DNA of 38,866 nucleotides, taken from positions 1-38,866 of IMG/VR virus record IMGVR_UViG_3300011158_000001; one strand, given 5' to 3'. Below the pieces are notes generated by a model. It saw only the letters and a list, made by a program, of their open reading frames with translations, did not search any database and was not told where the DNA came from. This stretch comes from a virus. Shown here piece by piece: positions 6,359-16,906 of the stretch (within the stretch, counting starts at the first letter, position 1; each line of letters opens with the position of its first letter). The position numbers and the translations under genes are program-made.

Positions 6359-7027
6359 ATGATCGTTCTCATCGGCAATACGAAAGGCGGTACCGGCAAG
6401 AGCACCACTTCCGTTCAGCTCGCAGTCGCACGAGCTAACCAAGGCAAGAATGTTTGGCTGGTCGATGGAGATCCGCAGAACAGTTCCGGCCAGGCTATTA
6501 CGCTTCGTTTGATGGATGGAGTAAAACCAGCCGTCGCTGCATCCCATTACCCGAAAGGCGATGACTTCTACGTCCAGGTTGAGCATCAATCCAAACTTTA
6601 TGATGACGTAATCCTGGACTGTGGTGGTTTCGATAGCGAGTCGTTGCGTTCCGCCTTGGCCTTGGCCGATGTACTAGTGGTCCCGTTCCAACCTCGCGCC
6701 TTCGACACTTGGGCACTTAGCAAAATGGCTTCTCTTATAGATGAAGCACAACGCGCACGTTCGCGAGCCAAGATTCAACCCCTCCGTGTGCATGCCATGC
6801 TTTCTATGGCTGATCCTGGTGTGAATGCCTCTGACAACCTTGAAGCTGAAAGGGTACTCGAGCATTACCCGCAACTTCCTTTCTTGGATGCATCGCTCGG
6901 CGATCGAAAGGCATTTGCTGTTGCATCAAGCCGCGGGCTTAGCGTCGATGAACTTGAGCGTAAGGATCAGAAAGCCAGCTTCGAGCTCAAGCGCCTGGTG
7001 CGTCATATCTTTGGAGATGTTGAATGA
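6359..7027 (+). CDS. parA: ParA partition ATPase (small, type Ib)
   Basis: Deviant Walker A motif GNTKGGTGKST at the N-terminus. 222 aa with no N-terminal HTH. Confidence 0.9.
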   Translation: MIVLIGNTKGGTGKSTTSVQLAVARANQGKNVWLVDGDPQNSSGQAITLRLMDGVKPAVAASHYPKGDDFYVQVEHQSKLYDDVILDCGGFDSESLRSALALADVLVVPFQPRAFDTWALSKMASLIDEAQRARSRAKIQPLRVHAMLSMADPGVNASDNLEAERVLEHYPQLPFLDASLGDRKAFAVASSRGLSVDELERKDQKASFELKRLVRHIFGDVE

Positions 7028-7314
7028 AAAAGAAGGTATCGATGCTTCCCCCTGGAATGGCTCCAGCTGCACCAACCGAGCAGCCAGATAACCAAGCCAT
7101 AAAGCAGTTCATCCAGGGTGCTCCCGATAGCGGTAAACCAGCCGAAACTGAGGTGCCTAAAAAGAAGAAGAAAAGGGAGCCGGTAACGATGCTTTATCCA
7201 TCCGATCTGCTTGAGCGTGTAGATGAATTTGTTCGAAATGACGAGGTTTTGAACACCAGGACAGCTTTCGTTATGCAAGCTATTCGGAATGAACTCAAGC
7301 GGCTACAGGAGTGA
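7024..7314 (+). CDS. ParG-like ribbon-helix-helix centromere-binding protein
   Basis: 96 aa, ATGA-coupled to parA. Disordered basic N-terminus, with a C-terminal VTMLYPSDLLERVDEFVR..RTAFVMQAIRNEL that fits an RHH fold. Confidence 0.65.
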   Translation: MKKKVSMLPPGMAPAAPTEQPDNQAIKQFIQGAPDSGKPAETEVPKKKKKREPVTMLYPSDLLERVDEFVRNDEVLNTRTAFVMQAIRNELKRLQE

Positions 7315-7351
7315 GCCGCTTGTTTCAACGCTCAGTCTATATGCTACTGCA

Positions 7352-7458
7352 CATATGAAATACGTATAATATACGTATTTCATGAATATAAAATACATAT
7401 TTATTGAGTATGTCATAGGTAAATCATACGTATAACGTAAGTATTTCATATGTATTTG
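7352..7458. repeat. AT-rich centromere-like repeats downstream of the par operon, including a 29-bp palindrome
   Basis: atgaaatacgtata-a-tatacgtatttcat at 7355..7383 (14-bp perfect arms). Further copies tcatacgtataacg (7424..7437) and gtatttcatatgtatttg (7441..7458). Confidence 0.55.
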
Positions 7459-7465
7459 CTTTTCG

Positions 7466-7869
7466 TGCTACAAATTCCGGACTTTTCCGGGATAGGGGCC
7501 GATGACTTAGAAATGGGCTAGAAAGCCTTTCCTGATCAACGCTTTTCAGCAGATCTGTTAGTTAATAGCGGGTCTCATGCTACAAATGCCGGACTTTCCG
7601 ATTTTCATAGCGACTAGGGGAGGGGGGTAGCTTACCCGGTGCTACAAATTCTGGACTTTTGCTCTTAAAAAAGACTTAAAAAATCAGTGTTCTTGATCTG
7701 TTTTTTTATCTTGTTTTTTAACTTGTTTATAGAGATCGCTGCAGGCCTTTAGCCATGCGGCTTCCAGCGAAGCGCGTGCTACAAATTCCGGACTTTGCGC
7801 TACAAATTCCGAACTCTCTGCTACAAAAAACGGATGTTATCCACATTCGAGCTACAAATTCCGGACATG
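7466..7869. repeat. Iteron array / oriV
   Basis: TGCTACAAATTCCGGACTTT-like 20-mers start at 7466, 7578, 7640, 7777, 7798, 7819 and 7850. The last four are in tandem at 21-31 bp spacing. An A+T-rich tract with GATC sites lies at 7661..7735. The array sits immediately upstream of a Rep_3 gene. Confidence 0.85.
7837..7845 (+). promoter_or_regulatory. DnaA box
   Basis: Perfect TTATCCACA between iterons 6 and 7. Confidence 0.5.
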
Positions 7870-7928
7870 TAGCAGATAGGCTTTTGATTGGATACACTCG
7901 GCCTTTCATTCCCGGCATGTGACTCATT

Positions 7929-8660
7929 ATGACGGACCTGATGATCGACGAGGCCGACCACTGGGTAGTAAAGGGCAACGCTCTGTTAGAGGCGGCATAC
8001 AAGATGACGCTCCAGGAGAAGCGCTTGCTTTTGCTGGCCATCTCCAAAATCGACTCTCGTAAGCCAATCCCTGAGCCGATTCGTATCTATGCGCATGAGT
8101 TTGCCCAGGCATACAACCTGCCGGGAAAATGGGCCTATGAGGCTATCAAGGAAGCAACAGAAAGCCTGTACCACTGCACGATCAAGATCCCAGAAGTAGC
8201 AAACAGCCCCGAGGACGAATACCGCTGGATTTGGCGTAAGAGCACGACCAAATATGATGGCTTCGTTGAGCTGTACTTCACGCCAGTGGTTGCACCCTAC
8301 CTATCTGAACTGACAGGCGATTTCACGCGCTACAAGCTGATGCGTGTGGCTAACCTAACCTCAGTCCATAGCGTGCGGCTATTCGAGATGTTCATGCGCT
8401 ATGAGGTCGAGGGTTTCGGCTACTGGATCGTCAAGCTGGACGATTTCCGCGAGCGCCTTGGCCTGGGCAAAGCGTACGAGCGTATGAGCAATCTACGGAC
8501 GCGCGTGCTGGATCCGGTAAAGAACGAGCTACCCGAGAAGGCCAATATGGTGATGGACTATGAAATCATCAAAAAGGGCAGGGTACCCGACCGGTTGAAG
8601 TTTACGTTTTACTCAACGACAGACGCTGAAGCGCTGCCCATATCATCCGATCGAGGATAG
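7929..8660 (+). CDS. Iteron-binding replication initiator (Rep_3 family)
   Basis: VVKGNALLEAAYKMTLQEKRLLLLAISKID is the Rep_3 N-terminal signature. 243 aa, with iterons directly upstream. Confidence 0.9.
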   Translation: MTDLMIDEADHWVVKGNALLEAAYKMTLQEKRLLLLAISKIDSRKPIPEPIRIYAHEFAQAYNLPGKWAYEAIKEATESLYHCTIKIPEVANSPEDEYRWIWRKSTTKYDGFVELYFTPVVAPYLSELTGDFTRYKLMRVANLTSVHSVRLFEMFMRYEVEGFGYWIVKLDDFRERLGLGKAYERMSNLRTRVLDPVKNELPEKANMVMDYEIIKKGRVPDRLKFTFYSTTDAEALPISSDRG

Positions 8661-8668
8661 AAGAGACC

Positions 8669-8935
8669 ATGCTAATAGTTCGCTTAAAAAACGGTGTTAC
8701 CTTAAATTTTGAGCGATCTATCGGCAATGCAGGAAAGCATGGTATCTGGGAGTTTCACCGTGCGGCTAACTCTTACATGCGGCCGCCGAACTACACGCCT
8801 TTCCGGCATGCCGCGATACTTCCATCAGACCCCAGTCCTAACCAGACTGTAAGCGTAGCAATCTGTGCTCCGGGGATGCCTGAGTCAGACTGGATTCCCG
8901 TAGGCGAGGGGACCGCTACGCATGAGGAATGGTAG
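8669..8935 (+). CDS. Hypothetical protein
   Basis: 88-aa ORF 9 nt after rep. No motif recognised. Confidence 0.4.
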   Translation: MLIVRLKNGVTLNFERSIGNAGKHGIWEFHRAANSYMRPPNYTPFRHAAILPSDPSPNQTVSVAICAPGMPESDWIPVGEGTATHEEW

Positions 8936-9039
8936 CGGCGTTCTTCGCATAACATCCATTGTGTTAAATGACCGCTATCGGCCATAAGCGGACCGTCAGA
9001 ATCATCAAAAAACCTAGATCAGCGTATGGCAAACTGTCG

Positions 9040-9356
9040 TAATTCTCTCGCCAGCCCCTAAGGCGAGGCCTCCAGTCGCTTTGTTTGGCGACAAGGTAAG
9101 CGCAGTTTACCGCGTCAAAACCCTTACCAGCGCTCGGCGATAGCGCCTGAAGGATGTCCCGGAGAATATGCTGGAGGCGTTGACCGCGATTCAGTGCCGT
9201 GATATCTAATTACCATCGGGTTTGGGGCACAATTTAACTTTCCACTGACTATATGCGGTGGCCACTGCAAGGGTAGCTTTGCCTGATCGCGCTATACGGT
9301 TACGTTACTGATGGCGACGGTAAAAGAGAAAATAGCCCCAAAGCCCGGTACTACGA
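9040..9356 (+). ncRNA. Candidate retron msr-msd template region (boundaries not resolved)
   Basis: ORF-free DNA directly upstream of a retron-type RT. Inverted repeats gcctccag/ctggaggc (9068..9075 / 9171..9178) enclose three small hairpins. Imperfect 16-18 nt repeat taccatcgggtttggggc / gccccaaagcccggta (9211..9228 / 9335..9350). No long msd-like hairpin or clear branching G could be identified by eye. Confidence 0.3.
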
Positions 9357-11153
9357 ATGGATATCGACGAGGATTTCAAGGATTTATTTGGCCCGGGTTT
9401 CAAGAGCCTCGATGGGTTCTGCCAGCTATTAGAAGTTGATAGAGACAAACTACTCAACTTCCTTTACAACAGGAAAGGCAGCCATTACGTTAGCTTTCTC
9501 ATCTTAAAGAAAAACAAAACCCATCGCTGCATTAAAGCACCCATACGGGTAATGAAGAAAATTCAGCATGCGCTTTTGCCGCATCTCGAAAAATTCTATT
9601 CCCCCAAGCCTTCCAGTCATGGCTTCGTCAAGGGAAGGAACGTCAAGACAAATGCTCAAATCCATTCCGGAAAGAGATATGTGTTCAACATTGATCTGAA
9701 GGATTTTTTCGAAAGCATCCATTTTGGGCGAGTCAGAAATTTATTCATGGCCCCCCCATTTAGTGCACCCTACAATGTTGCGACTGTTATGGCGCATATT
9801 TGTTGCAGCGACGGAAAATTAGCTCAAGGCTCCCCAACCTCACCGCTAATATCGAACATGATTTGCCGGAAGCTAGACTCACAAATTCAGGCCCTAGCAA
9901 AATCAAGTAAATGTCATTTTACACGGTACGCTGACGACATTACGTTTTCCTTTACCTGTACTGAAAAATACTTACCGAAAGATATTGTCGAAGTCTCCGA
10001 GGACGGCAGAGCGATACCTGGGTGCGTACTGGAGGAGATCATCAAATCCAATGGTTTCATCATAAACTCCGAAAAAACGCGTCTTCAGCACCGGACGCAG
10101 CGCCAGATGGTAACGGGCCTGGTCGTCAATGAGATGCCAAACGTAACCAGAGAATTCATCCGTTTAACGAGTTCGATGATCAACGCTCTTAAACGCTACG
10201 GGCCTGAGCTGGCAGAAGCCAAGTATTTGGAAATTCTGAAGAGCGAGAATCAGCCGCTTCAGCCTCGACAAACTCTGCGGGCGAAGGGGAATTCTGGCGA
10301 TTTTTTTATCAAGGTGGTCAAAGGGCGACTGAATTATATTCAAATGATTCGCGGTCGAGGTGACAAGATCTATCGTCGCTTGGCATATGAATTCACAGTA
10401 GCTATAGGCAAAGAGAATCTTGAGTTCAAAAAATCACCTGAAGAGATCTTAGGAAACTCAATTTTTGTCGTTAACAACATCATTGAGGAATCTCAGGGGA
10501 CGGCCTTCCTTCTGGATGGGGTCGGCATCGTTACCAATGAACACGTTGTGACGGGGGTATCTAAAACGATCGCTCGTCACTCCATTTCATTCAAGCGTGC
10601 CGGCGATACGAGAGAGTACTCAGCAGAGCTTATCCTTTCGGACAAAAAAGCAGACTTGGCTATTTTTCATCCCAATGAAGAGTTCCGAAACATACCCGCC
10701 CTGCGCAAGTCCGACAAAACGATTATTCGCCCCACGGATCCAGTTCTATCGATCGGTTTCCCTAAGCATCGAGACGGTACCGCGCACTACATCGCAAAAG
10801 GCCATACTACTCAGCGACGCCGCCAGGTCGACCTAGATCTGTGGTTGGTTGATTTCACGCTGATGGAGGGAAATAGTGGTGGTCCTATGTTCAACGACTC
10901 CATGGAAGTGATCGGTATCACAGCTAGAGGAGCAAGAAATAATATCGATGCAGCGCTTTACGGCTTTATACCACTAGAAAGCTTGAACAGTTTTATAAAC
11001 AGAGCGGACTTTCTACTTCTGAAAAGGTTGTACGACTATCTAGGCAACGGATCACTAAGCCTCCTCCCTAGAGTTCTTGGCAAGGGGCTTTTTAGCAGTA
11101 CCTACCAAATAAAGCTCCATAAGGAACGCCTTCAGCAAGCTAAGGCAGTTTAA
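9357..11153 (+). CDS. Retron-type reverse transcriptase fused to a C-terminal trypsin-like (S1) serine protease
   Basis: RT motifs NAQIH (NAxxH, 9651..9665), YADD (9927..9938) and VTG (10110..10118). Protease triad contexts TNEHVV, DLAIF and GNSGGPMF (Ser codon 10875..10877). 598 aa, with lower GC than the backbone. Confidence 0.9.
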   Translation: MDIDEDFKDLFGPGFKSLDGFCQLLEVDRDKLLNFLYNRKGSHYVSFLILKKNKTHRCIKAPIRVMKKIQHALLPHLEKFYSPKPSSHGFVKGRNVKTNAQIHSGKRYVFNIDLKDFFESIHFGRVRNLFMAPPFSAPYNVATVMAHICCSDGKLAQGSPTSPLISNMICRKLDSQIQALAKSSKCHFTRYADDITFSFTCTEKYLPKDIVEVSEDGRAIPGCVLEEIIKSNGFIINSEKTRLQHRTQRQMVTGLVVNEMPNVTREFIRLTSSMINALKRYGPELAEAKYLEILKSENQPLQPRQTLRAKGNSGDFFIKVVKGRLNYIQMIRGRGDKIYRRLAYEFTVAIGKENLEFKKSPEEILGNSIFVVNNIIEESQGTAFLLDGVGIVTNEHVVTGVSKTIARHSISFKRAGDTREYSAELILSDKKADLAIFHPNEEFRNIPALRKSDKTIIRPTDPVLSIGFPKHRDGTAHYIAKGHTTQRRRQVDLDLWLVDFTLMEGNSGGPMFNDSMEVIGITARGARNNIDAALYGFIPLESLNSFINRADFLLLKRLYDYLGNGSLSLLPRVLGKGLFSSTYQIKLHKERLQQAKAV

Positions 11154-11501
11154 TGAATGATCAAAGTACAATGGCTAGTTTGCCTCGCCCCAAGCGACTT
11201 AACATCCATTCTTCTGTTTGGCACACAATCACACATAAGTCACAATACTCCTGCGTCGAGAGCTGCCCGGGTACGCCATGAGAATCATGGGTAAGATGAG
11301 TCGAGTCGGGACGCATCAGCGCGACCTTGTACCTGACAGCCATCGACATGCATGGTGTGAGCTACTCGCTTCGTTGATGCCTGCAAACTATAGTCGTCTT
11401 ATAAACGCGGCAGAAGAGTCCGCCTTTGGTCGATAGCTGTCATTTAATGTGGGTAGTTACTGGGTCGCTACAGGACGCCTACGCACAACACCCAATATAT
11501 A

Positions 11502-11523
11502 AAAGCCTCGATCAGAGGGCTTT
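11502..11523. terminator. Candidate bidirectional terminator hairpin
   Basis: aagcctc-gatca-gagggctt (one bulge), with T-rich runs on both strands. Lies just 3' of the recombinase gene. Confidence 0.4.
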
Positions 11524-11529
11524 CTGCTT

Positions 11530-12180
11530 CTACAAAATAGAAAGCTGGTCATCCGACTGCATTAGCGCAGCCGTCTCTCGTTTGAACCGGGACACTGTAC
11601 TGGTCGAGCAGCCGAGTAGATCCGCCGTCTTACGAACAGAGAAGCCTTTAGCCAAACATTCCTGAATCCTGCGCCGTTGCTCTTGGTCGGTTTGCCGACC
11701 CCGGTACAAGCCTGTGCTTTTGGCTTTTTCGATGCCTTGTATTTGCCGCTCGCGCCGTATGTCGTAGTCCTTGCGCGCAAATGCGGCCATGAATTCCAGA
11801 AACATCTGGCTGATCGCTTTAAGCATCCACTCTTGAATGCTGTCTTCGCCCGTAGGTTTGAGTACAGCATGTGTGATGGGCAGATCGAGCGCGACGACCT
11901 GAAGACCTGCCGCTGCGATCTGGTTACGCAACTGCTCCCAGGCCGATCTGGGGAGGCGGGTCAGACGGTCGACTGATTCGACTAGGAGCACATCGCCAGG
12001 TGAAGCGTCAGCAAGTAGCCGCAGCAGCTCGGAGCGGTCCACTGTCGTGCCCGAGGCATTCTCAATATAGAAGGCAGCGATACGGACACTTTGATCGGCT
12101 GCGAAGGATTGAAGCGTCTTTCGAGCCCGGTTGGCGTCCTGGTCGTCAGTGCTGGCTCGAAGGTAGGCGCGAATGAACAT
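11530..12180 (-). CDS. Small serine recombinase (resolvase/invertase family)
   Basis: N-terminal MFIRAYLRASTDDQ (catalytic Ser context), ..VESVDRLTR.., and a C-terminal HTH (SVRKTADLLGCSTSTVSR). 216 aa. Confidence 0.9.
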   Translation of the reverse strand: MFIRAYLRASTDDQDANRARKTLQSFAADQSVRIAAFYIENASGTTVDRSELLRLLADASPGDVLLVESVDRLTRLPRSAWEQLRNQIAAAGLQVVALDLPITHAVLKPTGEDSIQEWMLKAISQMFLEFMAAFARKDYDIRRERQIQGIEKAKSTGLYRGRQTDQEQRRRIQECLAKGFSVRKTADLLGCSTSTVSRFKRETAALMQSDDQLSIL

Positions 12181-12190
12181 TTATGGCCTC

Positions 12191-12322
12191 AGGTGTAGTC
12201 GTTAGGTGTAGCGAATTATAGGTGTAGTCGTATAAGTCCTTTTACCTATTTATCGCTACACCTGAAAGGCCTGTTTTGGGTGTAGTCGCTGGGGTATACC
12301 TTACTGACTACAAAAATAGTCG
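12191..12322. repeat. Array of GGTGTAGTCG-type 10-mers (candidate res/operator sites)
   Basis: aggtgtagtcg 12191..12201, aggtgtagcg 12204..12213, aggtgtagtcg 12220..12230, inverted cgctacacct 12254..12263, gggtgtagtcg 12278..12288, gactac..tagtcg 12306..12322. All lie between the recombinase start and the next gene. Confidence 0.6.
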
Positions 12323-12341
12323 TAATTTTAAGGAGATTTTG

Positions 12342-12917
12342 ATGAGACAATTTGATCAGCAATCGGAGATGGATGAGGAGCTACAAGCTTTTTTGTGCGC
12401 CCAACGTGCGGAATTCGAAGAGCGTACTTACTGGGTAAATCACTCATTAGGTGCTGAGAGCCATTGGTTATTTGAGCAGGCATACGAGGCGTTAAAACAC
12501 GGATTGTATTTACCAGCGTGTACAGGATTCCTTACGGGAATCGAGGCGTCACTTCGCAATACAATGGCTCAGGTAAACAATCTAGCCCGTGTTGAGAGTG
12601 TGGACGATATATCACTACTAAGTAATGCTCTGCTACGTCAAGCGCGGGCCAACGGTATATCGATTGAAGCATTAATTTTTCCAAAAGAAGAGAACTTCGA
12701 AGACAAGCTAAAAACTCGGCAACAACCCGTCGAGATTGTTAGGGTTCGCCACAATTTTTGCCATGGGAATATCCTTGAGCATGTAAGAACAGCATACGAG
12801 ACACCATTTTTTACACCTGAATGCTGTCGCGAACTTGCTGAAACGCTTCACATGATCTCGCGCAACTGGGTAGCGAGCCTAGGTATATATAGAAAACAGA
12901 TTCTTGGTTTGAAGTAA
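12342..12917 (+). CDS. Hypothetical protein with a possible HEPN-type Rx4H motif
   Basis: ATG 12342 is preceded by aggag (12331..12335). 191 aa, predicted helical. VRVRHNFCHGN has R (12747..12749) and H (12762..12764) spaced as Rx4H in the C-terminal third. Confidence 0.45.
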   Translation: MRQFDQQSEMDEELQAFLCAQRAEFEERTYWVNHSLGAESHWLFEQAYEALKHGLYLPACTGFLTGIEASLRNTMAQVNNLARVESVDDISLLSNALLRQARANGISIEALIFPKEENFEDKLKTRQQPVEIVRVRHNFCHGNILEHVRTAYETPFFTPECCRELAETLHMISRNWVASLGIYRKQILGLK

Positions 12918-13055
12918 CAAACGAGCTGTTTAGAATTTACTCTAGACGAATATGGTATTTTGTAAGGTCTGTTAGTTCTAGTTATCTAAATCTGGATCGC
13001 TCGTCTTTCGAGAGTCAGTCCCGGCAGTGGCAGTTCTGCTTTTGATCATGAATGG

Positions 13056-13391
13056 ATGTTTATGACTATGTACAAAAATGGAATGCGCCCAATTCATCCA
13101 GGAGAGATTCTTCGAGAGGAGTTTCTGAATCCGTCAGATACGTTAACCAAATGTTTTGCTCAGACAGCCTCTATCCCAGAAACCATACTGAACGACATCC
13201 TGTGTGAGCGTCAGGAGATAACATCTGACCTGGCTCTGTTACTCAGTAACGCTTTGGGTACTACAGCTAAGTTCTGGATGAACCTTCAGAGCGCATATGA
13301 CTTACGCTTGGCCGAACTGGCAAAGATGACGACTCATGGCATTCAGACGCAATTCAAGAGGGGCTGGACGAGGCCGAAGCAGGCCAGATAA
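13056..13391 (+). CDS. HigA-like XRE antitoxin/regulator with no adjacent HigB
   Basis: NGMRPIHPGEILREEFLNP and ..LSNALGTTAKFWMNLQSAYDL are the HigA/VapI signature. The upstream gap is too short for a toxin gene, and the C-terminal 20 aa look atypical. Confidence 0.7.
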   Translation: MFMTMYKNGMRPIHPGEILREEFLNPSDTLTKCFAQTASIPETILNDILCERQEITSDLALLLSNALGTTAKFWMNLQSAYDLRLAELAKMTTHGIQTQFKRGWTRPKQAR

Positions 13392-13462
13392 TCGACCTTG
13401 AGGATATCAATTCCAAATGGATAGGCCGTGCAAAAACGCATTTATCCAAACAGAGCTCATAG

Positions 13463-13487
13463 AAAAGCCTCCATTTGGAGGCTTTTT
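13463..13487 (+). terminator. Rho-independent terminator
   Basis: aaagcctcc-attt-ggaggcttt followed by a T-run. Confidence 0.75.
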
Positions 13488-13509
13488 CGTAAAGCAAGCA
13501 GGTAGCCTA

Positions 13510-15283: not shown

Positions 15284-15706
15284 TTAAGCTGCTTCTACAA
15301 CTACACGGATTCTTTTTCCCAATAGTTCTAAAGCATGTTCGACAGACTCTATTTTTGAATTATGTAGAAAGTCTACTAAACGATCTACCTGCGGCAAGTT
15401 AACGCCTAGTTTGCGGGCTAAGTCTGCTTTGCCCACACCTTGCTCGACCATTGCATTCCATAATGCAATTTTGGCTACTGTTAAAGCCGGTAGCCGAACA
15501 ATATGCTGTCCTTTTTTAGGTTTAGATGCCGCTGGAATTGCTCTTCGTTGAGATACGTAAATTGATAAAGCCGACTCTAGTCCATCTACTGCTTCGAGTA
15601 AGGCTTCAGCCTCATCATCGCCTGCGCTATGCAGCTCTGGTATATCAGGGCTGCTTACCCAGACGCATCCATCTTCGACATGTACGTCTACTGGATACTC
15701 GTTCAT
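15284..15706 (-). CDS. hicB: HicB antitoxin
   Basis: MNEYPVDVHVEDGCVWVSSPDIPELHSAGDDEAEALLEAVDGLESAL plus a C-terminal HTH (KADLARKLGVNLPQVDRL) parallels E. coli HicB. Confidence 0.9.
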   Translation of the reverse strand: MNEYPVDVHVEDGCVWVSSPDIPELHSAGDDEAEALLEAVDGLESALSIYVSQRRAIPAASKPKKGQHIVRLPALTVAKIALWNAMVEQGVGKADLARKLGVNLPQVDRLVDFLHNSKIESVEHALELLGKRIRVVVEAA

Positions 15707-16111: not shown

Positions 16112-16906
16112 TCAGAACAAGCCCGGCGGCTCGTCCTCTGGGTTCCAGCTAAAGATCAGCACCTCAGACGCACTCGCGCTCTTACCTCCACCGCCGACCG
16201 TATATTTCAGGTCGATCTTCTCGATGTGGAAAGCGCTGAACACCTCGCGGATCGCTGGGTGATCGTTCAGGCTGATGATGGCCTTGCCCTTGAGCTGGCC
16301 TAGCACACGGGCCATTTCCTCAAACTGCTCAAAGCCAAACGGCACGCCGTAGCCTTCCGTTTCCCAGTAGGGCGGATCCATATAAAAGAACGTATGTTCC
16401 CGGTCGTACTTCTTGATGCAGTCCTGCCAGGACAGGTGCTCGATGTAGGTCTGGGACAGGCGCAGGTGCGCTGCAGAAAGGTTCTCCTCGATGCGCAGGA
16501 GGTTCAGGCCGGGCGGTGTGGTGGTGGCAGTGCCATACGTCTGGCCTTCAACCTTGGCACCAAACGCCGACTGCTGCAGGTAGTAGAAGCGGGCCGCGCG
16601 CTGGATGTCGGTCAGGGTTTGCGGATCGGTCAGCTGCAGCCACTTGAACACCTGCCGGCTGGATAGCGCCCATTTGAACTGCCGGACAAATTCCTCCAGG
16701 TGATGCTGCACGACCCGGTACAGATTCACCAAGTCGCCATTTACGTCATTGAGCACCTCGACCTCCGCCGGCACTTGCCTCAGAAAGAAGAGGGCTGCGC
16801 CGCCGGCAAAGGGCTCGACATAGCAGGAGTGCTGCGGAAACAGCGGGAAGATACGGTCAGCCAGGCGGCGCTTGCCACCCATCCAGGGAATGATTGGGGA
16901 AGTCAT
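16112..16906 (-). CDS. dam: DNA adenine methyltransferase (Dam, D12 class)
   Basis: PWMGGKRRL, EPFAGGAALFF and a DPPY motif (FFYMDPPYWE). No cognate nuclease is nearby. Confidence 0.9.
   Translation of the reverse strand: MTSPIIPWMGGKRRLADRIFPLFPQHSCYVEPFAGGAALFFLRQVPAEVEVLNDVNGDLVNLYRVVQHHLEEFVRQFKWALSSRQVFKWLQLTDPQTLTDIQRAARFYYLQQSAFGAKVEGQTYGTATTTPPGLNLLRIEENLSAAHLRLSQTYIEHLSWQDCIKKYDREHTFFYMDPPYWETEGYGVPFGFEQFEEMARVLGQLKGKAIISLNDHPAIREVFSAFHIEKIDLKYTVGGGGKSASASEVLIFSWNPEDEPPGLF

Follow-up and report, generated by a model that had tools for sequence, protein, structure and literature searches.

The window considered here is a 38,866-nucleotide (nt) stretch of viral DNA, IMG/VR record IMGVR_UViG_3300011158_000001, positions 1 to 38,866. 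On its plus strand, a gene at 9357..11153 encodes a reverse transcriptase (RT) fused to a protease. It is very likely that the segment 9180..11153, made of this gene and of the DNA that precedes it, is a complete single-gene type XI retron whose multicopy single-stranded DNA (msDNA) would restrain the protease, and which would have an anti-phage role on a probable P2-like phage-plasmid. The type XI family, its non-coding RNA (ncRNA) and a reverse-transcribed DNA (RT-DNA) are already published, and an identical protein is present in public databases. The locus adds little as a discovery. Its remaining interest lies in the mechanism of the protease and in the nucleotide used for priming.

The open reading frame (ORF) of 598 amino acids (aa) that a first-pass annotation had read from the DNA letters is present as described. 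In a PADLOC profile search, its product is best matched by the model RT-Protease_XI (E 9.2e-180, 597 bits, residues 15-548), followed by RT-TIR_XII (383 bits) and RT-Toprim_I-C (333 bits), the remaining types scoring 235 bits or less. All leading PADLOC matches are retron RT models and the neighbours in NCBIfam agree with them (Ec67 and retron-TIR models, 317-326 bits). Pfam recognises RVT_1 (residues 49-254, E 2.3e-20) and Trypsin_2 (residues 381-521, E 7.7e-18) in this one ORF. The two retron hallmarks and the catalytic motif of the RT lie exactly where they had been placed, with NAQIH at 9651..9665 (from residue 99), YADD at 9927..9938 (from residue 191) and VTG at 10110..10118 (from residue 252). 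The same is true of the His/Asp/Ser triad, found within TNEHVV (10533..10550), DLAIF (10653..10667) and GNSGGPMF (10869..10892), the codons being 10542-10544 for H396, 10653-10655 for D433 and 10875-10877 for S507. Residue conservation was scored in 23, then in 66 homologues, with identity down to 38%. In the 66 homologues, N99, H103, D193, V252 and G254 of the RT are invariant, A100, Y191, D194 and T253 are nearly so, and H396, D433 and S507 of the protease are invariant. The earlier reading as a retron RT joined to an intact trypsin-like protease is borne out both by the score of the RT-Protease_XI model and by this invariance. An identical protein (100%) is on record as a multispecies Pseudomonas entry, and 1807 relatives score below E 1e-20.

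The AlphaFold2 model of the 598-aa protein has a mean predicted local distance difference test score (pLDDT) of 87.6. The nearest solved structure is that of retron Ec67/Eco2, by sequence (phmmer, E 1.5e-49) as well as by comparison of the model (Foldseek, E 2e-27, 334-376 columns, 33-36% identity). Residues 255-376 are helical in the model, and the PADLOC models for types XII and I-C align up to about residue 360. For the C-terminal domain, sequence and Foldseek comparisons both give HtrA, DegS, DegP and Deg2 as nearest structures. The PADLOC scores, together with Eco2 as nearest structure, place the protein in RT clade 8 with types I-C and XII, and by its sequence it is a canonical type XI retron RT (Mestre 2020). 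The system consists of a single gene: neighbouring genes differ in every locus examined and no accessory gene is conserved. A conserved downstream accessory gene that would be the substrate of the protease was considered and rejected, because the ORFs downstream in loci L086 and L088 are non-homologous and share no similarity, and because the window has no such gene.

The DNA upstream of the gene can be delimited from both sides. The ORF at 8669..8935 belongs to a genuine phage gene family (phrog_3944, E 4e-27) and the intergenic space therefore begins at 8936; as had been reported, 8936..9356 holds no plus-strand ORF of at least 60 aa. When upstream regions were aligned among homologues from unrelated genomic contexts, conservation among independent loci was found to begin at about 9178, the neighbouring genes all differing. 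BLASTN matches of 7001..13500 to all fetched loci have their left ends at 9176-9231 and their right ends at or before 11160, the full-length ones ending at 10916-11160. The sole exception to the left limit is locus L081, which shares 8977..11429 with the window. The whole intergenic region of about 420 nt had been described as structured DNA. This proves true of the 143 nt proximal to the gene, the minimum free energy (MFE) of which is -53 kcal/mol (z = -3.83, 0 of 200 shuffles as stable), but not of the distal part 8936..9213 (z = -1.36, 19 of 200 shuffles as stable). Similarly, the expectation of an msr-msd RNA upstream of the gene stands for 9215..9349, just before the gene, whereas the distal 240 nt are not part of it.

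The ncRNA is enclosed by a long stem between two arms, a1 and a2 (Table 1). The imperfect inverted repeat reported earlier at 9211..9228 and 9335..9350 is real and corresponds to this stem: an inverted-repeat search gives 9218-9228/9335-9345, with 91% complementarity, and the MFE helix spans 9215-9228/9335-9349. A degenerate pattern taken from the core of the ncRNA (TTTAAC...TGCRRTG...AARAGARA) matched 24 metagenome stretches and one viral stretch; it had 0 matches in 78 loci of more distant RTs. Wherever the contig reaches past the ncRNA, a homologue of the 598-aa protein, 41-88% identical to it, starts 2-45 nt downstream. Of these 25 stretches, 21 carry the ORF in full; a contig end cuts it in L107 and L117, while L101 and L105 end at the contig edge. 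A shortened ORF follows the ncRNA in L106 (144 aa, from about 2807 onward) and in the genome locus L002 (148 aa, from about 4007 onward). In both, homology runs on beyond the short ORF, and frameshifts, pseudogenes or assembly errors are the probable origin. A contig scan by protein alignment had picked generic RT motifs and yielded mostly distant RTs, L001 and L002 being the only useful loci.

In total, 30 distinct RNAs were obtained, and each of them, folded alone, forms the long a1/a2 closing stem (30/30). In a MAFFT alignment that was not fitted to the structure, this structure beats 500 of 500 shuffles on every measure, as well as every slid control. After realignment with a covariance model, R1, covariation was again above all 500 shuffles and the slid controls. 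In the R1 alignment, all 14 pairs of a1/a2 change on both sides and 89% of their cells are paired, so that the check by covariation which had been proposed for the upstream fold comes out in favour of a conserved, compensated stem. P1 is fully paired in 29 distinct sequences, in which one pair changes from C-G to U-A and several others show wobble changes. P2 is lost in a distant clade of Vibrio/Aeromonas type. In P3, 76% of the cells are paired. Of the single-stranded parts, the segment AAGAGAAA of the purine tract is invariant in the 30 sequences, and the UUUAAC motif also occurs in the type I-C3 and type XII ncRNAs of the census of Khan et al. (2024). The R1 model gives 148.8 bits to the window copy. 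It also finds related RNAs just upstream of distant RTs, with E from 3e-9 to 1e-2, namely before a Deinococcales RT-protease (L004, 3813-3965, E 3e-9) and before cyanobacterial RTs (L014, 3680-3847; L031, 3657-3793; L018, 3714-3862). Because these matches precede Deinococcales and cyanobacterial RTs, the ncRNA layout reaches beyond the clade of the window, and the comparison of sequences points to an ncRNA design shared across clade 8. The suspicion that the ncRNA might be atypical was not sustained: its layout is that of clade 8, common to Eco2/Ec67 and type XII.

Type XI retrons have been said to have no recognisable ncRNA (Mestre 2020). This absence is repeated in Toro 2026, where candidate ncRNAs are given for protease-less type XI-like lineages only and are presented as the first computational evidence for type XI retron ncRNAs. 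The work of Khan et al. (2024; bioRxiv 10.1101/2024.01.25.577267), in which protease-fused type XI retrons already have predicted ncRNAs and, in one case, a sequenced RT-DNA, predates this claim. In that census, ncRNAs were predicted by folding within 500 bp of each RT, and type XI members were tested, including a cloned Mestre-1278 (Pseudomonas sp. 8 R 14, fig|1844092.4.peg.3143, clade 8, type XI), from which a 59-nt RT-DNA, CTCTTTTAC...GCTACCC, was sequenced. The Mestre-1278 ncRNA is 81% identical to 9216..9348 of the window over 133 nt. Its RT-DNA maps to P2-P3, including the P3 stretch, and ends in the P2 loop; the equivalent in the window is 9271..9328. The independently derived ncRNA is therefore the published one. 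The 5′ end of the Mestre-1278 RT-DNA is complementary to ...GUAAAAGAG, and by homology the msDNA of the window would read 5'-CTCTTTTACCGTCGCCATCAGTAACGTAACCGTATAGCGCGATCAGGCAAAGCTACCC. Another type XI member of the census, Mestre-1265 from Pseudoalteromonas, carries a distant-clade version of the same ncRNA (Khan et al., 2024).

Upstream of a1, diverged homologues carry TTGAC(A/C/T) at an equivalent distance, and the extended -10 element is conserved as GTGATATC(A/T)A in the Pseudomonas clade. We infer that 9180..9208 is the retron's own promoter. Considering these elements together, the following course of events may be proposed. From the sequence, a sigma-70 promoter at 9180..9208 would drive one transcript, the first 135 nt of which (9215..9349) would be the msr-msd ncRNA and the remainder the message of the RT-protease. 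By homology, the RT domain would bind the msr part, that is, the UUUAAC motif and hairpin P1, would prime on the 2′-OH of a guanosine near the a1/a2 stem, and would copy about 58 nt of msd, from around G9328 back to around 9271 as in Mestre-1278, into a short msDNA. The later steps may be drawn from Eco2. In that retron, three RT-Toprim subunits are tied together by their msDNAs, which cage the nuclease. The phage endonuclease DenB starts decay of the msDNA, and the freed Toprim cuts tRNAs. By analogy, the HtrA-like protease fused to the RT would be kept inactive by the bound msDNA, until cutting, modification or sequestration of this msDNA by a phage activity frees the protease; cleavage of host or phage proteins would then abort the infection. 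The cassette, placed in a defence hotspot, would in this way protect the host of the element against competing phages. Since the first ~360 residues are homologous to those of Eco2 and type XII, only the effector being different, the Eco2 logic is the most likely one, and it is probably disturbance of the msDNA by a phage that lifts its restraint on the protease. The authors of the Eco2 work, who note that other RT-effector fusions, type XI included, have no documented mechanism, suggest the same logic for type XI.

Several observations speak against this scheme and should be kept in mind. The promoter is a consensus reading, and a simple promoter scanner did not list 9180..9208, because its -10 rule wants a T at position 6 and the hexamer here is TATCTA. 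No Shine-Dalgarno sequence is found before the ATG at 9357. Folded as DNA, the predicted msDNA forms a hairpin no better than shuffles (z = +0.40), probably because the RNA stem relies on G-U pairs. The window has A9231 at the position equivalent to the branching G of Eco2 and no unpaired G between a1 and P1, so that the earlier remark that no branching G is obvious stands. For Mestre-1278, production was scored 0 by polyacrylamide gel electrophoresis (PAGE), with no visible band (Khan et al., 2024), and production may therefore be very low. The literature searched gave no report of msDNA, toxicity, a mechanism or a defence phenotype for a type XI retron, in keeping with the first-pass statement that no mechanism is established for a fused protease effector. 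Finally, the sole basis for a caged protease would be the analogy to a different effector domain.

Some of these points may be turned into alternatives. If the RT-protease belonged to a non-retron defence group, either of the defence-associated RT, unknown group or abortive infection (DRT/UG/Abi) kind or group II intron-like, it would make no msDNA, as the missing RT-DNA band of Mestre-1278 by PAGE might suggest, and weak NCBIfam matches to Drt2, Drt3a and group II maturase could be invoked for it. However, these matches amount to 24-50 bits, far below the 597 bits of RT-Protease_XI and the 317-326 bits of the Ec67 and retron-TIR models, and the profile search that had been recommended to settle the class of the RT thus decides for a retron. 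The best structural match to Eco2, the covarying a1/a2 ncRNA and the RT-DNA sequenced from a homologue leave this alternative a negligible probability. It may also be imagined that the 135-nt RNA is only a cis-regulatory 5′ leader, acting on translation or stability and not serving as a template. Its place directly before the ATG, with a2 ending 7 nt away and no Shine-Dalgarno sequence visible, would fit with such a role, as would the possible pairing, in the distant clade, of a pyrimidine stretch with some of the purine tract. Yet the Mestre-1278 RT-DNA maps inside the equivalent region, and came from an artificial operon in which the ncRNA followed the RT; moreover, the layout matches that of the Eco2 ncRNA. 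A mere leader is thus very improbable. Even less credit can be given to the idea that the 8-bp stem 9068..9075/9171..9178, which the first-pass annotation had seen as closing three small hairpins, forms part of the retron ncRNA. Such a stem can indeed be drawn from the sequence, and its region is common to the window and L081. Nevertheless, it is excluded from the element because it precedes the conserved promoter and, apart from the window, occurs in L081 alone, being absent from all other homologous loci; in addition, its region folds no better than shuffles and the stem carries an uncompensated mismatch in L081.

The nature of the priming nucleotide deserves a separate discussion. The branch of Eco2 is G15, which we take to be, in the census sequence, the G located 2 nt before the UUU of the msr motif. 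The equivalent nucleotide is an A in the window and in 13 others of the 30 sequences, and a G in 11 of the 30 and in Mestre-1278. With no unpaired G from a1 to P1, the sub-lineage to which the window belongs might have lost canonical 2′-5′ branch priming, and would then make no msDNA or prime it otherwise. Against this, members of the A type have intact ORFs, an invariant YADD and covarying a1/a2 and P3. Since they keep catalytic residues and covarying stems, selection still acts on their RNA. In a stem that otherwise varies freely, the G run 9224-9227 hardly changes; for this reason it is a candidate branch site and could supply the branch from the 3′ side of a1. Furthermore, a type I-C3 ncRNA without any G in its first 25 nt gives abundant RT-DNA (Khan et al., 2024), so that the position of the branch is evidently not fixed within clade 8. 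A loss of branch priming is accordingly improbable. A somewhat less remote variant, still to be regarded as unlikely, is that a G paired within the a1 stem serves as primer, or that the RT primes by some other route, and that a scarce atypical cDNA gates the HtrA-like protease, the trimeric logic of which could match an msDNA-built trimer of the Eco2 type. If so, the phage-plasmid copy would be a compact model for the control of a protease by a retron and for the targets of this protease. Pairing of AUUU 9231-9234 with AAAU 9329-9332, which would lengthen a1/a2, was also envisaged. It was not adopted because it leaves no G beside the start of the template and has no counterpart in Eco2. The single-gene retron with a protease restrained by its msDNA is retained as the favoured explanation.

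Table 1. Coordinates in the window of the predicted retron, of its domains and of neighbouring genes
Feature	Position	Strand	Basis or remark
Predicted -35 hexamer, TTGACC	9180..9185	+	Start of homology among independent loci
Predicted extended -10, TGaTATCTA	9200..9208	+	17 nt past -35; predicted transcription start ~9215
Retron ncRNA (msr-msd), 135 nt	9215..9349	+	Fold, covariation, homology to Mestre-1278
a1 arm of closing stem	9215..9228	+	Pairs with 9335-9349; G run 9224-9227 nearly invariant
UUUAAC motif before P1	9233..9238	+	Invariant in 30 sequences
P1 hairpin (msr stem-loop), CCACUG/CGGUGG	9242..9261	+	100% of cells paired
P2 hairpin, GCAAGG/CUUUGC	9267..9282	+	Weakly supported, 74% of cells paired
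Predicted msd template, 58 nt	9271..9328	+	Mapped by homology from the 59-nt RT-DNA of Mestre-1278
P3 hairpin, msd stem, sequence variable	9286..9321	+	12/12 pairs change on both sides
Unpaired purine tract GUAAAAGAGAAAAUA after P3	9320..9334	+	Holds predicted reverse-transcription start G9328
a2 arm	9335..9349	+	Ends 7 nt before ATG
RT-protease gene (type XI retron RT)	9357..11153	+	598 aa; PADLOC RT-Protease_XI
RT fingers/palm, aa 49-254	9501..10118	+	NAQIH, YADD (D193, D194), VTG; Pfam RVT_1
Thumb and helical linker, aa 255-376	10119..10484	+	Common to type I-C and type XII RTs
HtrA-like trypsin-fold protease, aa 377-548	10485..11000	+	Pfam Trypsin_2; triad H396/D433/S507
ORF, 300 aa	4477-5379	+	No Pfam, PADLOC or PHROG match
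ParA	6359..7027	+	
Rep3-family initiator	7929..8660	+	
ORF, 213 aa, in defence hotspot	12276-12917	+	No Pfam, PADLOC or PHROG match
HTH (helix-turn-helix) antitoxin-like protein	13056-13391	+	phrog_1381
bSEFIR defence protein, 495 aa	13767-15254	-	PADLOC PDLC03957, E 8.6e-124; Pfam SEFIR, TIR_2
HicB-like antitoxin	15284-15706	-	phrog_497
DNA methyltransferase, type II or orphan	16112-16906	-	PADLOC MTase_II, E 5e-99; adjoins portal gene

The retron rides on an element which, from its gene content, fits a P2-like phage-plasmid, in agreement with the first-pass reading. The window has P2/phiCTX-type genes for gpD, portal, terminase, capsid scaffold, tail sheath and tail tube, together with ParA and a Rep3 initiator, and the scan, which covered a subset of the window ORFs, did not reveal a tyrosine integrase. 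ParA and Rep3 stand where P2-like phages normally have the gpA primase and the integrase. A Pseudomonas aeruginosa 'plasmid' that matches the terminase, CP075758.1, turns out to be a phiCTX-like genome of the ordinary kind, with integrase and toprim primase. The defence systems of P2 cluster in the interval from the replication gene to the portal gene, and the Rep3-to-portal interval of the window corresponds to this main hotspot. Between the replication module and the portal are found the retron, a serine resolvase, the HTH antitoxin-like protein, bSEFIR, the HicB-like protein and the methyltransferase. No obvious partner toxins were identified for the phrog_1381 and phrog_497 antitoxins. A second phage-borne copy of the retron, 86% identical, occurs in an IMG/VR contig (L117), beside a Dam-like methylase and lysis genes.

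The flanks of the retron unit, 8977-9177 and 11154-11429, are common to L081 only, with 88% identity. L081 is a chromosomal island adjoining pheT-ihfA, in which a fragment of an integrase and a TacA/acetyltransferase toxin-antitoxin pair are found. It may be that more than the retron unit travelled as a cassette between the two contexts. At the right end of the L081 homology (11429), just before the resolvase gene (11530-12180, minus strand), lies a 14-nt inverted repeat, 11334-11347/11429-11442, 93% complementary and with arms 81 nt apart. It may act as a terminator, or as a res or recombination site. When 8400..11600 was compared with Rfam at E up to 10, only chance matches to miRNAs and snoRNAs came out, and a megablast search of plasmids, E. 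coli genomes and phages with 8600..11400 found nothing.

Type XI retrons are now routinely annotated. The copy described here is intact, about 2 kb long (9178..11153) and located in the defence hotspot of a mobile P2-like element of Pseudomonas, with a clear predicted promoter and defined ncRNA bounds, and is therefore a convenient construct for testing whether an msDNA cages a protease effector as it does the Toprim nuclease in Eco2.

Among known systems, the closest is Mestre-1278. It shares with the window the RT clade 8, the type XI and the ncRNA architecture, including UUUAAC, P1 and the AAGAGAAA tract. It differs in the sequences of the a1/a2 and P3 (msd) stem-loops, in having a G where the window has A9231, and in its genomic context, the window copy being on a probable phage-plasmid. 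The nearest locus with an almost identical ncRNA to that of Mestre-1278, L094, encodes an RT 74% identical to the window protein. Eco2/Ec67 (type I-C1; PDB 9lm3, 9i2f, 9s1f) also has RT and effector in a single polypeptide. The elements of its ncRNA follow the same order, with a1, an A/U-rich motif, the msr hairpin, the msd, a purine tract and a2. Ec67 is likewise carried by a P2-like phage. The two ncRNAs are, however, 52% identical, and the effector of Eco2 is a tRNA-cutting Toprim RNase instead of a serine protease; the trimeric msDNA cage and the DenB trigger have been shown for Eco2 only. The type XII retron (RT-TIR) gives the second-best PADLOC and NCBIfam models, aligned over residues 17-360; its ncRNA also has UUUAAC followed by a hairpin. 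The start of its RT-DNA likewise lies about 6 nt before a2. It carries a TIR domain as C-terminal effector where the window has a protease. This protease has the fold and the catalytic His/Asp/Ser triad of HtrA, DegS and DegP, but it has neither PDZ domain nor signal peptide and is fused to a cytoplasmic RT. Lastly, the type XI-like lineages of Toro 2026 belong to the same broad RT clade and have candidate upstream ncRNAs flanked by a1/a2. They have no protease, carry WYL or DnaB_C accessory genes and are found in Bacteroidota and Bacillota, whereas the window holds the canonical, protease-fused form.

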